Positions 6,105 through 11,391 are shown, counted from the stretch's first letter. The stretch: DNA of 64,000 nucleotides from Candidatus Omnitrophota bacterium (GCA_049517335.1 JBEKSD010000002.1:32001-96000), one strand, 5' to 3'. Notes: generated by a model from the sequence alone, not told the origin. Program-made: numbers and translations.

Positions 6105-7036
6105 CGGAATTAATGTTGGAAAAATGGTCAGGGCAAGTTGCTACTGTGGTAATCGGCGCTACAAAAGAAGAAGGCGGGACCCGGGCGCATTCGGTCAGGG
6201 TAGGGGGGCAAAAAAGTTTACCGTTCTTATTTGCCGAAGGAGACATACCAAATAAACCGGTGATTGCTTTTGAAATCTGGGATGCCCAGCCCCTAGACTG
6301 GCCTGAACAGCTAGTTAAAGAATATGGCGACGTTTTGAAAGACCCTTTCTTATGGGCGCAGAAATGCGTAAAGGATTTTAAGGCTAGAGTTTTATGCGTG
6401 CGCCTTCAGGCTACGCACCCTGATTTCGCTAATAAAGATGCACCGGATGAGGCAAAATTCATATCAATGCTGCTTAAAAAAGTTGATGTGCCTCTTATTA
6501 TTTTGGGATGTGGCGATGACGTAAAGGATAACCAGATTTTCCCCGCAGCCAGCGAAGCAGCAAGGGGAGAACGCTGCCTGATAGGAAACGCTGTACAGGA
6601 TAATTATAAAACCTTAACCGCTGCCGTACTTGCCGATGGCCACAACATCATTGCCGAGTCGCCTATTGACATCAATATAGCAAAACAGCTGAATATTCTG
6701 ATTTCAGATATGGGGTTACCACTCGAACGCATTGTCATAAACCCGACTATTGGAGCATTAGGATACGGATTAGAATACGCTTACTCTATTATGGAGAGGG
6801 CGCGTCTTGCCGCACTTTCAGGAGACAAAACGGTCGCTTCGCCTTTTATCTGTTTTGTAGGACAAGAGGCGTGGAGGGCAAAGGAAGCAAAAGATACTTT
6901 TGAACAACAGGGAATTGTCTGGGAAGTAATTACTGCAGCTGCTTTGATTCAGGCAGGAGGCGATATTTTAGTGATGCGTCATCCCAAAGCAGCTGAAGAA
7001 GTAAATAAATACATAGAAACATTATTTAAAAAATAA
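6098..7036 (+). CDS. acsD: Corrinoid Fe-S protein small (delta) subunit
   Basis: SPIDINIAKQLN, ALGYGLEYAYSIMER, EAWRAKEA, MRHP. Confidence 0.95.
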   Translation: MVAELMLEKWSGQVATVVIGATKEEGGTRAHSVRVGGQKSLPFLFAEGDIPNKPVIAFEIWDAQPLDWPEQLVKEYGDVLKDPFLWAQKCVKDFKARVLCVRLQATHPDFANKDAPDEAKFISMLLKKVDVPLIILGCGDDVKDNQIFPAASEAARGERCLIGNAVQDNYKTLTAAVLADGHNIIAESPIDINIAKQLNILISDMGLPLERIVINPTIGALGYGLEYAYSIMERARLAALSGDKTVASPFICFVGQEAWRAKEAKDTFEQQGIVWEVITAAALIQAGGDILVMRHPKAAEEVNKYIETLFKK

Positions 7037-7048
7037 AACGGAGTTAAT

Positions 7049-7837
7049 ATGTTTATAATCGGCGAACTGATAAACGGAATGTATCAGGATATTGGGTCTG
7101 CGATTAAGAATAAGGATAAGCCCGTAATACAAAAATGCGCGCTTGCTCAGGTTAATGCCGGAGCAGATTGCCTAGATGTAAACTGCGGCCCGGCTTCAAG
7201 ACAGCCGGTATCTGATATGCCTTGGCTTGTTGAAACGATACAGGAAGTAACGGATAAGCCCTTGAGCCTCGATTCCAGCAAACCTCAGATTATTCAGGCC
7301 GGATTAAAAGTTATAAAAAATAAAGTTGTCATCAATTCAACCACTGCGGATCCGGAAAAATTGGAAATTTTAGTGCCGCTTGCCAGACAATACAACGCTA
7401 AGCTGATAGGCCTGACTATAAGCGCAAAAGGGATACCACAGAATAAAGACCAACGCCTTGAGCTGGCGGCTGCGATAGTTGCACATTGTTCGGATGCGGG
7501 CTTTCCTATTGAAGATTTATATCTTGACCCGATAGTTATGCCGGTAAATGTAGCGCAGGCGCAAATAAAGGATATTTTAGAGTCCATCCGCGAATTTAAA
7601 ATTATATCCGAACCCAGCCCCAGGACAATCGTAGGATTAAGTAATGTTTCACAGGGCACGGGGCAGAGGAATCTAATTAATAGGACATTTTTGACAATGG
7701 CAGCCGGTTTTGGCCTGGACGCCGCCATACTTGACCCGTTGGATAATAAACTTATGGACGCCCTGATAACCACAGAGCTAATTCTGAATAAAAACATTTA
7801 TTGCGATTCTTATTTAACCGCCTATAGAAAAAAATGA
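7049..7837 (+). CDS. acsE: Methyltetrahydrofolate:corrinoid Fe-S protein methyltransferase
   Basis: IIGELING, LDVN, GLSNVSQ, LINRTFL, LDAAILD; context next to acsCD. Confidence 0.93.
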   Translation: MFIIGELINGMYQDIGSAIKNKDKPVIQKCALAQVNAGADCLDVNCGPASRQPVSDMPWLVETIQEVTDKPLSLDSSKPQIIQAGLKVIKNKVVINSTTADPEKLEILVPLARQYNAKLIGLTISAKGIPQNKDQRLELAAAIVAHCSDAGFPIEDLYLDPIVMPVNVAQAQIKDILESIREFKIISEPSPRTIVGLSNVSQGTGQRNLINRTFLTMAAGFGLDAAILDPLDNKLMDALITTELILNKNIYCDSYLTAYRKK

Positions 7838-8208
7838 AAAAATTTTCTTACGGTTTTTTTGAAAGTTTAAGAGTTGCCTTCAAGGGCATTATTTATCTCT
7901 TCCTTTACCACCGCAATATGCGTATTATATTCATGCTCGGGGCTTGCGCTTTTCTCTTCGGTATTTATTTTAAGCTAGAGGGAATCCAGATGGTAACGCT
8001 TTGCATCACCATAACCTTAGTTTTTATGGCTGAAATTTTTAATACTGCAATTGAGATACTGATGAATATGCTCACTTCAGAATACCACCTGCGCATAAAG
8101 TTGGTTAAAGATATTGCTGCGGGCGTGGTAATATTGGCCTGCTTAAATGCCCTCGCAGTTGGTTATATACTTTTTTACCGTAGTATAATTTATTTGACAA
8201 AAAGCTGA
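7834..8208 (+). CDS. dgkA: Diacylglycerol/undecaprenol kinase (DgkA family)
   Basis: EIFNTAIE and KDIAAG motifs, three hydrophobic segments. Confidence 0.88.
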   Translation: MKKFSYGFFESLRVAFKGIIYLFLYHRNMRIIFMLGACAFLFGIYFKLEGIQMVTLCITITLVFMAEIFNTAIEILMNMLTSEYHLRIKLVKDIAAGVVILACLNALAVGYILFYRSIIYLTKS

Positions 8209-8222
8209 CAAAAGGGTATCCT
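8194..8222 (+). promoter_or_regulatory. Sigma70 promoter of tRNA-Met
   Basis: TTGACA-17 nt-TATCCT just upstream of the tRNA. Confidence 0.65.
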
Positions 8223-8239
8223 TTAAAAAATAGATTTTT

Positions 8240-8316
8240 GGCGGAGTAGCTCAGCCTGATAGAGCACGCGGCTCATACCCGCTTGGTCGGTGGTTTAAAT
8301 CCACTCTCCGCCACCA
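8240..8316 (+). tRNA. tRNA-Met(CAT), probably elongator; encoded CCA
   Basis: Acceptor GGCGGAG/CTCCGCC-A-CCA, D-stem GCTC/GAGC, anticodon loop CT-CAT-AC, T-arm GGTGG-TTTAAAT-CCACT. Confidence 0.92.
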
Positions 8317-8332
8317 GTTATTTAGCTTCTTC

Positions 8333-8361
8333 TTGACAAACAGGATTTGTAACGGTATACT
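8333..8361 (+). promoter_or_regulatory. Near-consensus sigma70 promoter driving the micro-ORF
   Basis: TTGACA (8333-8338), 17-nt spacer, TATACT (8356-8361). Confidence 0.8.
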
Positions 8362-8385
8362 ATATTTAAACACGAGGAGGAAAAT

Positions 8386-8424
8386 ATGTGCAAAACTTGT
8401 GGATGCAGGAAGAAACCAAAATAA
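8386..8424 (+). CDS. 12-aa Cys-rich micropeptide MCKTCGCRKKPK (HypB-like CxxCGC metal motif)
   Basis: GAGGAGG RBS (8374-8380) 5 nt before ATG; own promoter and downstream hairpin; below the ORF-track size cutoff. Confidence 0.65.
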   Translation: MCKTCGCRKKPK

Positions 8425-8467
8425 CAGTTTTTGACGGTTGATTAAACAGCTAGATACATATTTTCAT

Positions 8468-8498
8468 AAAAGGCAACTCATTCTTTGGGTTGCCTTTT
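8468..8498 (+). terminator. Intrinsic terminator-like hairpin
   Basis: AAAAGGCAACTCA-TTCTT-TGGGTTGCCTTTT. Confidence 0.7.
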
Positions 8499-8513
8499 AG
8501 CTATCTCAATACA

Positions 8514-9473
8514 ATGCTAAATAAAGTCAAGAATACAATTGAAAAATACGGTTTGATCCGGAAAGGCGACAAAATTCTCGTTGGGGTTTCCGGCGGCCCT
8601 GATTCCGTAGCGTTGTTATATATTTTAAATACCTTAAGGAAAAAAGGCGCATTCCATTTGCACATCGCACACCTTGACCATATGTTAAGAAAAAACTCGA
8701 CTAAAGACGCCGAATTCGTTAAGAAGCTTTCCGTTAACCTTAAAATCCCTTTACGGACTGGGCGCATCAATGTAAAAAAATTAGCAAAAAATCAGTCAAT
8801 TGAAGAGGCCGGCCGCAATGCCCGTCTTGACTTCTTCTTTAAAACTGCCGAGAAAATTAAAGCGGATAAAATTGCCCTTGCGCATAACCTTGAAGATCAG
8901 GCGGAAACCGTCTTAATGCGCATATTGCGGGGGACAGGCCTTTATGGATTGTCCGGAATTTCGGCAAAAAGAAAAATCCGCGGCTATGAGATCATCCGCC
9001 CCCTTATTGAAACGAAAAGGAGCGAAATTGAGTCATATTTAAAAAAAAATCGGATCAAATCGCGGCTTGACCGATCAAACTTTGAAGATATCTATTTTCG
9101 TAACAGAATCAGGAATAAACTGATCCCGCTCTTGGAAAAAAATTACAGCCCGAATATAAAAGAATTACTTGCTAATCTTGCCGTGAATTCCGGCTCGGAT
9201 TACCAGTTCCTTGAACATTTGGCGGCTAAGGCAATAAAGAAAACAACAACAAAATTTAATTTAAAGGCTCTCAGCCAACTTCACATTTCAATGCAGCGGC
9301 TACTTTTCAGAAGAGCGATAGCATGCCTACAGGGTGATACCCGCCGGATCACCTTTAGGCATATAAATGAAATTGAAGATTTGGTTTTAAACCGGCCGAA
9401 AAATTCAATTGTTGACCTGCCTAAAGGTATATCAGTAATAAAGAAAAAATCCCTCGTTTTCTACCGAAGATAA
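8514..9473 (+). CDS. tilS: tRNA(Ile)-lysidine synthetase
   Basis: SGGPDS PP-loop, HLDHMLR, AHNLEDQAET, IRPL, RNRIR; ATG 8514 preferred over TTG 8490, which lies inside the hairpin. Confidence 0.95.
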   Translation: MLNKVKNTIEKYGLIRKGDKILVGVSGGPDSVALLYILNTLRKKGAFHLHIAHLDHMLRKNSTKDAEFVKKLSVNLKIPLRTGRINVKKLAKNQSIEEAGRNARLDFFFKTAEKIKADKIALAHNLEDQAETVLMRILRGTGLYGLSGISAKRKIRGYEIIRPLIETKRSEIESYLKKNRIKSRLDRSNFEDIYFRNRIRNKLIPLLEKNYSPNIKELLANLAVNSGSDYQFLEHLAAKAIKKTTTKFNLKALSQLHISMQRLLFRRAIACLQGDTRRITFRHINEIEDLVLNRPKNSIVDLPKGISVIKKKSLVFYRR

Positions 9474-9485
9474 TTTCAATAATAC

Positions 9486-9514
9486 TTGATTTTTAAGTCG
9501 GTTAAAGATATAAT
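9486..9514 (+). promoter_or_regulatory. Sigma70 promoter of ftsH
   Basis: TTGATT-17 nt-TATAAT. Confidence 0.65.
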
Positions 9515-9540
9515 AAAAGTCTAAAAAGGGGAATGTAAAA

Positions 9541-11391
9541 ATGTCAAACCATAATCAGAAGTCCAAGAAAAACAATATACTTAAGCGAATTCCTTTCGGT
9601 TGGATATTCGTTATCATCATTTTTGTGATGTTGATAAATTCCTTTAATATTCCCGTAAACGGAGTGCCGAAGGAAATAAGTTACAGTGAATTTTACCGAA
9701 CCTTAAAAGACAGCCCCGATAGGATTAAGTCTTTGACAAAAACCGAGAGTATCCTGCAGGGCGAATACAACGATAAGTCCAAGTTCTTTGTGAATATTCC
9801 CGATAACGACACTGAGTTGTTAAATTTAATCCGCCAAAATGTGAGAAATTTTGAGGTAAAGCCGGCGCGAACATTCTGGGTTTCGCTCCTTTTTAATGTC
9901 GGTCCAATCTTACTCTTGATATTTTTCTGGTGGATGATGGCTGCCCGGGGAGAACAGCTGGGCAACCGAGTTATGGCTTTTGGGAAAGTCAGACCTAAAG
10001 TTCAGGGAGAAAAAGAAAAGACCACCTTTAATGACGTCGCCGGAGTAGATGAAGCCAAAGAAGAATTAAAAGAAGTAATTGAATTTTTAAAAGACCCTAA
10101 AAAATTCCAGAAATTAGGCGGTAAAATACCCAAAGGCGTCTTATTGGTGGGCCCACCTGGCTGCGGGAAGACTTTAATCGCAAGGGCCGTGGCAGGAGAG
10201 GCGGGTGTGCCGTTTTTCTCCATAAGCGGCTCGGACTTCGTAGAGATGTTTGTGGGAGTCGGCGCCAGCCGCGTGCGCGACCTCTTTGAACAGGGAAGGC
10301 GCGCAGGAAAAGTTTCCGGTAAGGGCGCAATAATTTTTATTGATGAGATTGACGCAGTAGGGCGCCTACGGTTTGCAGGCATCGGCGGAGGTCATGACGA
10401 ACGGGAACAAACATTAAACGCGCTTCTAGTTGAAATGGACGGGTTTGACTCCCAGCAGGGGCTGATTTTAATTGCCGCGACCAACAGACCGGATACTTTG
10501 GACCCCGCGCTTCTTCGTCCGGGCAGGTTTGACAGAAACATCATTGTTAATTTACCTGATATAAGGGGAAGGGAAGAAATTCTGAAAGTCCATACCCGCA
10601 AGATTAAACTTGCCGAGGGAGTGGATCTTAAGTCCATTGCCGCTTCAACCCCCGGCTTTTCCGGTGCAGACCTGGCAAACCTCTGTAATGAGGCGGCCCT
10701 GCTTGCCGCCCGTCACAGTAAAGAAGCGGTGGAAATGATTGAATTTGAGAAATCGGTTGAAAGAGTGCTGATGGGACCTGAAAAAAAGAGCCACATTATG
10801 TCTAAGAAAGAAAAGGAAATAACCGCGCTGCATGAATCGGGACACGCCTTAATGTCCCTTTTATTGCCCGAAGTAAACCCGGTAAAGAAAGTTTCCATAA
10901 TCCCTCGCGGCTTAGCCGGCGGCTACACTTTTACTCCTCCGCTTGAAGACCGGCATTACTGGACTAAACGCGAGCTAATTTCAGAAATTGCCATGATGCT
11001 CGGCGGCAGGGCATCGGAAGAAATTAATTTGAATGATGTTACTACGGGCGCCCAGAATGACTTGGAGATGGCCACCGGTATGGCGCGTAGAATGGTTACC
11101 CAGTTCGGCATGTCCGAAAAATTAGGCCATATTACCCTGGGCCGTAGGGAAGGTCTTGTATTTTTGGGCCGCGATATCATGGAAGAGAAGAATTACAGCG
11201 AGCAAACAGCCCGTATTATAGATGAAGAAGTAAAAAGTATAATAGATGAAGCGTATTTAAAAGCAAAGAGTTTGCTGCAACAGAATTTAGATAAGCTAAA
11301 AATGCTTTCAAGCGCTTTAATAGAAAAAGAGGTTTTAAGCGGAGACGAAGTTAAAAAACTACTTGGTATTGAGAAAGCGGACCTTACCTAA
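9541..11391 (+). CDS. ftsH: ATP-dependent zinc metalloprotease FtsH
   Basis: Two TMs, [31 protein letters not shown]. Confidence 0.98.

Follow-up and report, generated by a model that had tools for sequence, protein, structure and literature searches.

A predicted twelve-codon gene with a HypB-like MCxxCGC start and its relatives in Bacteria and Archaea

We analysed a 12-codon open reading frame (ORF) in a 64,000-nt stretch of DNA (the window) from a Candidatus Omnitrophota bacterium (GCA_049517335.1 JBEKSD010000002.1:32001-96000). The ORF encodes the peptide MCKTCGCRKKPK, and its first seven residues, MCKTCGC (coded at 8386-8406), resemble the N-terminal metal site of HypB. Sequence comparison indicated that this mini-gene is real and that it belongs to a new, unannotated micro-protein family, designated family A, which occurs in both prokaryotic domains. 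The peptide may be a free-standing metal-binding peptide, and this reading is weighed below against several alternatives.

The mini-gene is conserved as a coding sequence

Genomes were searched with a degenerate DNA pattern of MCxxCGC that imposed no ribosome-site requirement, and the reversed pattern was used as the control. The pattern matched once in the window (0 in 100 shuffles) and once across the 1.45-Mb host genome. It gave 8 matches in 41 close relatives, 61 matches (54 genomes) in 401 Omnitrophota genomes and 46 matches in 15 Methanocellales genomes, compared with 0, 8 and 5 matches of the control, respectively. When the 60 distinct matches of the phylum sample were read as ORFs, 22 belonged to family A, 13 to a second group (family B, described below) and 25 were miscellaneous. 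A GGAG or GAGG sequence was present at -16 to -4 in 15/22 of family A and 11/13 of family B but in 1/25 of the miscellaneous ORFs. None of the phylum-sample matches was a HypB-length ORF carrying the motif. In two Omnitrophota relatives (G039 and G020), the mini-genes were preceded by boxes that resembled TTGACA/TTGCTA-17-TATATT/TATAAT by eye.

We compared nine Methanocellaceae ORFs at the nucleotide level. Variable sites numbered 1, 0 and 10 at the first, second and third codon positions, and pairwise codon differences were 166 synonymous versus 8 nonsynonymous. Mean identity was 0.86 within the ORF and fell to 0.38 and 0.27 in the 39-nt flanks, and all three stop codons were in use. Because these nine ORFs had been chosen by pattern, and pattern-retrieved sets are biased to conserved copies, an order-wide search of Methanocellales that required only MCxxCGC was made. 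The full sequence MCD[T/S]CGCGKKPK-stop was found in 11/15 genomes; 2/15 further genomes matched in the first seven codons, beyond which they were not read, and 2/15 were without the ORF. Pairwise comparison of the 12-residue members from Omnitrophota (the host genome G000, G039/L226 and L066) gave 15 codon differences that were synonymous and 2 that were nonsynonymous, and their flanks could not be aligned. Similarly, a 263-nt contig from another organism in a peat metagenome run (X3) matched the window at 8375-8424 alone, that is, in the Shine-Dalgarno (SD) sequence plus the ORF, with six differences and dissimilar flanks. This points to a relative with the same cassette in another place. 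The upstream loose end of that contig contained AACGGTATACTA, which resembles the -10 region of the window.

Taken together, the cross-domain conservation of the peptide, the synonymous change, the conserved ribosome sites and the unalignable flanks argued that the ORF is not a chance one. From this conservation, we infer that it is translated and under purifying selection.

Definition and spread of family A

Family A was defined here by an invariant MCxxCGC start, a tail of at least 60% Lys, Arg or Pro and a stop within 22 codons. Its members were 10-22 amino acids (aa) long, and up to 28 aa in Methanocellales. MCKTCGCRKKPK has the motif start, a length of 12 residues, a tail in which 5/5 residues after the motif are Lys, Arg or Pro, and an SD sequence 5 nt upstream. 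Of the 22 phylum-sample ORFs (10-22 aa), 20 looked genuine and were carried by 20/401 Omnitrophota genomes; the search of the 41 close relatives added two more carriers. Examples are MCKSCGCRKPKPK, MCGTCGCQKKKPKK and MCATCGCRSKPKKKAKKKKK. One relative, MCKTCGCKKKPK (G039, L066), differs from MCKTCGCRKKPK in 1/12 residues (Arg8/Lys8). Others are MCATCGCRKPKPK in G020 and MCDTCGCGKKPK in Methanocellales.

The pattern MCxxCGCxKKPK would be expected by chance about 0.07 times in 596 Gb, by our own estimate from the pattern information and the database size. It was found at 16 loci among GTDB species representatives. By record title, eight of these were Methanocella or Methanocellaceae (one a complete Methanocella genome), one Methanobacteriota, five Omnitrophota or Omnitrophica, one Woesearchaeota and one Planctomycetales; in the GTDB scheme, some of the records that bear the title Planctomycetia belong to Omnitrophota. 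The patterns xKKKPK and xKPKPK added 14 and 4 loci, respectively, some already known from the earlier search, and these included Aenigmatarchaeota, Woesearchaeota and Dehalococcoidia. In the record titled Aenigmatarchaeota (L265), a stretch of 8 kb contained two copies, MCNSCGCSSKKPKK and MCGVCGCSKKKPKK. Family A was also present in DPANN genomes of 0.6-1.0 Mb.

The ORF had been predicted to escape gene callers. This held for the longer relatives: a collection of 15 billion proteins lacked all four of the family A peptides of 20-28 aa that were looked up in it. The 12-residue members lie under the 20-aa minimum of the protein look-up and of the Pfam and NCBIfam searches, so longer relatives were tested in their place. 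No Pfam family covered any of the family A, B and C peptides searched (20-55 aa). NCBIfam likewise contained none for the peptides tried, and HypB_prefix_1 alone appeared below threshold (E 0.03-0.1 for longer family A members, 6e-4 for family C). No description of a free-standing MCxxCGC peptide was found in the literature searched, a body of text outside which most subscription journals lie.

Gene neighbourhoods of family A

At 52 family A loci, we clustered the ORFs closest to the peptide gene on either side, and most clusters had a single member. The peptide gene lay between argJ-argB and argD in five genomes, with gaps of about 10-130 nt. Single-domain response regulators adjoined family A and family B genes alike. 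Among the ten Methanocellaceae loci listed, a PAC2 gene was upstream in six, and the downstream ORF was on the opposite strand in six. In a Woesearchaeota and an Iainarchaeum genome (L225:2792-4193, L087:6377-7808), cysS ended 5 nt before the peptide ATG, and in a second Woesearchaeota genome (L271) cysS was about 590 nt upstream of the peptide gene. The coupling of a three-Cys mini-ORF to cysS may be meaningful, or it may be inherited synteny. In another Woesearchaeota genome (L076), aRF1 was upstream. Single cases included MsrB-MsrA, an MBL-rhodanese fusion, a DCC thiol oxidoreductase, DJ-1, a nitroreductase, an M48 protease, Metal_resist/LTXXQ, an RND pump, MFS transporters and others. The Metal_resist/LTXXQ, RND, MsrB-MsrA, DCC, MBL-rhodanese and M48 cases suggest a flavour of metal or thiol stress in some neighbours.

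The position before tilS, which the mini-gene occupies in the window, was not conserved. No Cys-containing mini-ORF of such a kind was found within 600 nt upstream of tilS in any of 28 relatives of the same family, and in 5/28 tRNA-Met immediately preceded tilS without an intervening mini-gene. The order ORF-hairpin-tilS was shared with the window by G020 and L279 only. Thus, the expected conservation of an SD-MCxxCGC-stop unit was borne out across many loci and failed at the tRNA-Met/tilS locus itself. Because the contexts varied and 0/28 relatives had the ORF before tilS, the mini-gene is an autonomous cassette, here inserted between tRNA-Met and tilS, and not a conserved tilS leader.

Structure of the locus

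The promoter, SD sequence, ORF and hairpin that had been predicted were all present (Table 1), and 8333-8499 is a self-contained transcription unit for the 12-codon gene. The promoter was the top promoter-like site in 7000-10000 in a promoter scan, and transcription is expected to start near 8368. The peptide has 3 Cys in 12 residues (25% Cys) and no aromatic residues.

Table 1. Features of the mini-gene locus in the window
Feature	Position	Strand	Remarks
tRNA-Met (CAT)	8240..8316	+	ARAGORN; Rfam tRNA match, 59 bits; upstream neighbour, outside the unit
Sigma-70-type promoter TTGACA-17-TATACT	8333..8361	+	-35 box TTGACA 8333-8338, 17-nt spacer, -10 box TATACT 8356-8361; score 11/12
Shine-Dalgarno sequence GAGGAGG	8374..8380	+	5 nt 5' of ATG; read from sequence
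12-codon gene and TAA	8386..8424	+	Encodes MCKTCGCRKKPK; ATG TGC AAA ACT TGT GGA TGC AGG AAG AAA CCA AAA TAA
14-bp stem-loop, terminator-like	8467..8499	+	Arms AAAAGGCAACUCAU ... UUGGGUUGCCUUUU; U run within 3' arm
tilS (tRNA-Ile lysidine synthetase)	8514..9473	+	Pfam PP-loop and TilS domains

The gene order was a LarB-like AIRC protein, an FmdE-like protein, AcsC, RACo, a CooC-type ATPase, AcsD, an AcsE-like protein, DgkA, tRNA-Met, the mini-gene, tilS, ftsH and a folP-like gene. The acsE-like gene ended at 7837, and the ATG of the mini-gene was 549 nt beyond that stop, in agreement with the distance of about 0.55 kb given in the original prediction. The host genome is a peat-derived Omnitrophota metagenome-assembled genome (92% complete, 1.45 Mb). 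The locus or part of it was present in six DNA runs from peat or wetland, and no variants of it were found in the four peat or wetland DNA runs compared. None of the RNA runs listed contained 8000-9600. An Rfam scan of 8100-8700 (E up to 10) returned the tRNA alone, the remaining matches being far under the gathering scores.

The stem-loop at 8467-8499 had a predicted folding energy of -19.5 kcal/mol (z -7.6), and 0/200 shuffles folded equally well. Its stem core was identical in G020 with a different loop, and the stem in L279 was the same as in the host genome. A consensus terminator scan made no call at the hairpin because the sole U run, UUUU, sits within the 3' arm, where it pairs with an upstream AAAA. 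Since this run is four bases only and is paired inside the stem, partial read-through is plausible. The promoter scan detected no + strand promoter-like site between 8424 and 8514, so tilS may depend on read-through, and part of the transcripts probably run through the hairpin into tilS-ftsH. The whole leader (8368-8513) folded better than its shuffles (z -4.4). A helix was predicted between the SD/start region (~8377-8391) and 8455-8467; by eye it was not evident in the G020 alignment.

A possible metal-binding function

We consider the chance about even that MCKTCGCRKKPK is a stand-alone peptide that binds metal through its thiolates, a metallothionein or metallochaperone reduced to a minimum. 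Since the second residue, Cys, is small, methionine aminopeptidase would be expected to remove Met1, and the predicted mature peptide is CKTCGCRKKPK. The amine of Cys2, now free, and three thiolates (Cys2, Cys5 and Cys7) could then form an N1S3 site as in E. coli HypB. With such a site formed after Met1 removal, the peptide would serve in the cytosol to buffer metal by its thiolates or to hand it over. The polycationic tail could provide solubility, or docking on acidic partners or polyanions.

Nickel is the lead metal candidate, and nickel specificity is doubtful. A narrower proposal, which we regard as unlikely, is that family A represents the smallest nickel metallochaperone in nature, an N1S3 site of the HypB type, or a CGC site like that of acetyl-CoA synthase (ACS), that stands free of any larger protein and would act in trans for nickel-enzyme maturation. 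Its hosts would be those with a HypB lacking the motif (Methanocella, Sumerlaeia) or those in which HypA and HypB were not found (G000). Indeed, the HypB proteins of a Methanocella carrier and of a Sumerlaeia carrier were without MCxxCGC. In the host genome G000, two large subunits of [NiFe]-hydrogenase are encoded, both group-4-like and with their Ni-ligand motifs (RxCGxCxxxH and DPCxxCxxR) intact, as are HypC, HypD and the C-terminal part of HypF, in addition to the CooC/ACS cluster; the hydrogenase and hyp genes are on contigs C9, C3 and C15 (L185, L186, L217). HypA (PF01155) and HypB (TIGR00073) gave no match in this 92%-complete assembly, and the matches of PF02492, which lay in other proteins, were no more than partial and marginal (about 20 bits). 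A frameshifted hypB stub was considered as the origin of the mini-gene and rejected; a length of 12-22 aa recurs in dozens of genomes, and no HypB-like sequence was found in G000.

Co-occurrence with nickel enzymes, another expectation of the original prediction, was seen in part. The [NiFe]-hydrogenase large-subunit profile PF00374 matched in 15/20 Omnitrophota carriers versus 198/401 genomes overall; the Ni-ligand motifs were examined for the two G000 proteins only, and the other PF00374 hits are profile matches. Of the remaining five carriers, one had CooS and three had LarA-like genes.

Several findings weigh against a metal-binding, and in particular a nickel-binding, function. The PF00374 enrichment vanished when it was considered by family (f1, 47/59; f11, 16/16), and the co-occurrence is unspecific because the carriers cluster in families where the match is common anyway. 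In four DPANN carriers and one Dehalococcoidia carrier, no [NiFe]-hydrogenase large subunit (0/5) and no LarA over the cut-off (0/5) was detected, and G261 had no PF00374 or CooS match and only a partial LarA match of 24 bits. The G000 assembly is incomplete, so that hypA and hypB may simply be unassembled. Most neighbourhoods are unrelated to metals (argB-argD, cysS, aRF1, response regulators, PAC2). Three cysteines would equally suit Zn, Cu(I), Cd, Fe or disulfides, and the Lys-rich tail is without counterpart in HypB.

Alternative explanations

The Lys/Pro tail could make the peptide a polyanion-binding micro-protein with a housekeeping role on RNA, DNA, the ribosome or acidic lipids, its three-Cys head being a structural Zn site or a redox switch. 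Some family A tails (RSKPKKKAKKKKK and STKPKAAAKAKPKKK, for example) look similar to basic tails that bind nucleic acids, the gene is retained in the small DPANN genomes mentioned above, and translation genes adjoin it at several places (tRNA-Met and tilS; cysS at L225, L087 and L271; aRF1 at L076). However, such neighbours are a minority of the 52 loci, the shortest tails (RKKPK, GKKPK) have 4-5 residues, which is little for stable nucleic-acid binding, and it is the Cys head that is invariant, not the tail. We therefore regard a polyanion-binding role as a minority possibility, about as unlikely as the in-trans nickel metallochaperone. A role in thiol redox or sulfur stress, as a Cys-rich peptide of sacrificial or relay type (an oxidant or electrophile scavenger or a persulfide carrier) in anaerobes without glutathione, would fit the genes found on the same strand within about 20-70 nt: MsrB-MsrA (L155), an MBL-rhodanese-YgaP fusion (L145), a DCC1-like oxidoreductase (L097), DJ-1/PfpI (L184) and a nitroreductase (L144). 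These are five of 52 loci, counted with no statistical control, and the strict C-x-x-C-G-C spacing directly after Met better suits a defined coordination site. Since the same motif is described as a proven metal site of HypB in the accessible part of PMC12284835, we consider the thiol role quite improbable.

A cis-acting leader was the alternative that the original prediction itself had raised. How the ribosome advances across the three Cys codons would decide whether the hairpin forms and with it read-through into tilS-ftsH. The lack of a promoter-like site between ORF and tilS, the 14 nt from the hairpin end to the tilS ATG (8514), the shared order in G020 and L279, and the predicted fold of the leader with its paired SD/start region all agree with such a device. 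Yet the survey of 28 relatives gave no instance of it, five of them having tRNA-Met directly before tilS; the same peptide is encoded between argB and argD (5 loci), after cysS and beside response regulators; and the next called ORF is on the opposite strand at 6/10 of the Methanocellaceae loci listed. Moreover, the tail is conserved at the amino-acid level, and the stop codon is 42 nt 5' of the hairpin, probably too far for masking by a stalled ribosome. As the function of the family, a leader peptide is largely refuted, and for the locus in the window we hold it to be very unlikely. A precursor of a ribosomally synthesised and post-translationally modified peptide or of a metallophore, modified or exported, would agree with the Cys/Gly-rich core, since such cores are typical heterocyclisation substrates. 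The peptide has no leader or signal sequence, no recurrent maturase, YcaO, radical-SAM or exporter gene was found beside the 52 loci, and the neighbours in G000 are dgkA, tRNA-Met and tilS, which makes this explanation extremely unlikely. The same low standing applies to a chance ORF within a promoter-terminator pair whose product would be a small RNA or whose sole role would be to drive tilS. The ORF is indeed very short and the Rfam search gave no family match, but the cross-domain peptide conservation, synonymous change, conserved ribosome sites and unalignable flanks described above all oppose it.

Other MCxxCGC micro-proteins

Family B comprised 13 ORFs of 34-38 aa with 10-11 Cys in the phylum sample, of the form MCxxCGC[ST]PCxKCGKPIxxGxCxGCxKKxxxCxC, with strong ribosome sites and their own terminators. 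The Omnitrophota loci of this family were L003, L005, L008, L147-L149, L152-L154, L156 and L166-L170. These ORFs look metallothionein-like. PF00374 matched in 13/13 of the carrier genomes of the phylum sample, a figure confounded by phylogeny. The one family B member tested was absent from the 15-billion-protein collection.

Family C proteins are 52-66 aa long. They start with MC[IVYLM][ST]CGCG (MCISCGCGMPNDKHNNP...), followed by a helical-looking region (...ITxEDLxKAAKAANMS...), and often occur in several copies per Methanocellales genome (L235, L241, L242, L246, L247, L250, L253, L254, L258, L259, L263, L264). Further loci were L024, L026, L054, L078, L105, L107 and L127, and the family was also found in records titled Nitrospirota/Nitrospiraceae, Chloroflexia and Limnocylindria. 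In the protein collection it is present solely as 'hypothetical protein'. The neighbours of family C genes (52-60 aa) in Methanocellales were an SDH-type protease, a histidine kinase, MgtC/DUF4010 and a glycoside hydrolase, with no metal link.

A further set of ORFs of 19-28 aa starts with MC[AVGMD]TCGC[ITRQ]K and has a tail (...SACRAATLPTSSRR...) unlike that of family A. They were mostly in records titled Rhodobacteraceae or relatives, with two titled Thiothrix (L020, L035, L037, L042, L045, L051, L055, L058, L060, L065, L069, L088, L096, L100, L102, L119, L124, L126, L128). A different leader is one possible explanation of these ORFs, and another gene read out of frame is a second.

Because four different tails, the HypB GTPase and those of families A, B and C, are fused to the same start, MCxxCGC looks like a portable metal-binding cap.

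Discussion

If translated, the mini-gene and its relatives would be among the shortest protein-coding genes conserved in both prokaryotic domains, invisible to standard annotation. Family A would provide a natural isolate of precisely the motif on which metallobiochemists have worked in the form of a synthetic HypB fragment, and the role of the site on its own is therefore directly testable: Methanocella is a cultured carrier, and the peptide is trivially synthesised. If the in-trans nickel metallochaperone proposal were true, the family would be the natural counterpart of designed minimal nickel peptides. The wider unannotated set of MCxxCGC micro-proteins (12-28, 34-38 and 52-66 aa) occurs in anaerobes that depend on nickel enzymes and may bear on metal buffering in peat and sediment microbes.

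The nearest known system is the N-terminus of E. coli HypB. In the portion of PMC12284835 available to us, the Met-CTTCGC start is described as binding Ni(II) with picomolar affinity in a square-planar site formed by the N-terminal amine and Cys2, Cys5 and Cys7, which agrees with the chemistry invoked in the original prediction. The same portion reports that short peptide maquettes of the motif bind both Ni and Zn, and that hydrogenase maturation in E. coli is not supported by the motif on its own when the remainder of the HypB extension is missing. MCKTCGCRKKPK has the same motif in the same place, Met followed by Cys2-x-x-Cys5-Gly-Cys7. In contrast to HypB, it has no linker, no His-rich stretch and no GTPase domain (TIGR00073/PF02492), and it ends five residues past the motif, all of them basic or Pro. 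By its sequence, then, MCKTCGCRKKPK resembles the HypB N-terminal site and is not a HypB.

A second comparison is with 'nickelback', a designed 13-residue di-nickel peptide. As far as the consulted text of PMC10005181 goes, its CGC holds Ni as in the ACS A-cluster, and in both the design and ACS the CGC coordinates a square-planar Ni through two thiolates and through two amides of the backbone. MCKTCGCRKKPK is of similar size, has a CGC triplet and a further Cys, and is encoded 0.55 kb from an acs cluster. The design has four Cys and two Ni, whereas MCKTCGCRKKPK has three Cys and is known from sequence alone.

The mini-gene also shares with attenuator leaders a tiny ORF, a strong ribosome site, a 5' leader and a hairpin just before the next gene. 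It differs from them in that its position is not conserved relative to any gene and that the peptide sequence itself appears to be under selection. Bacterial metallothioneins are small Cys-rich metal-buffering proteins. MCKTCGCRKKPK is like them in its low mass, its Cys content, its lack of aromatic residues and the absence of an expected metal-free fold, and it differs in that a single potential site takes the place of a thiolate cluster for several metals.

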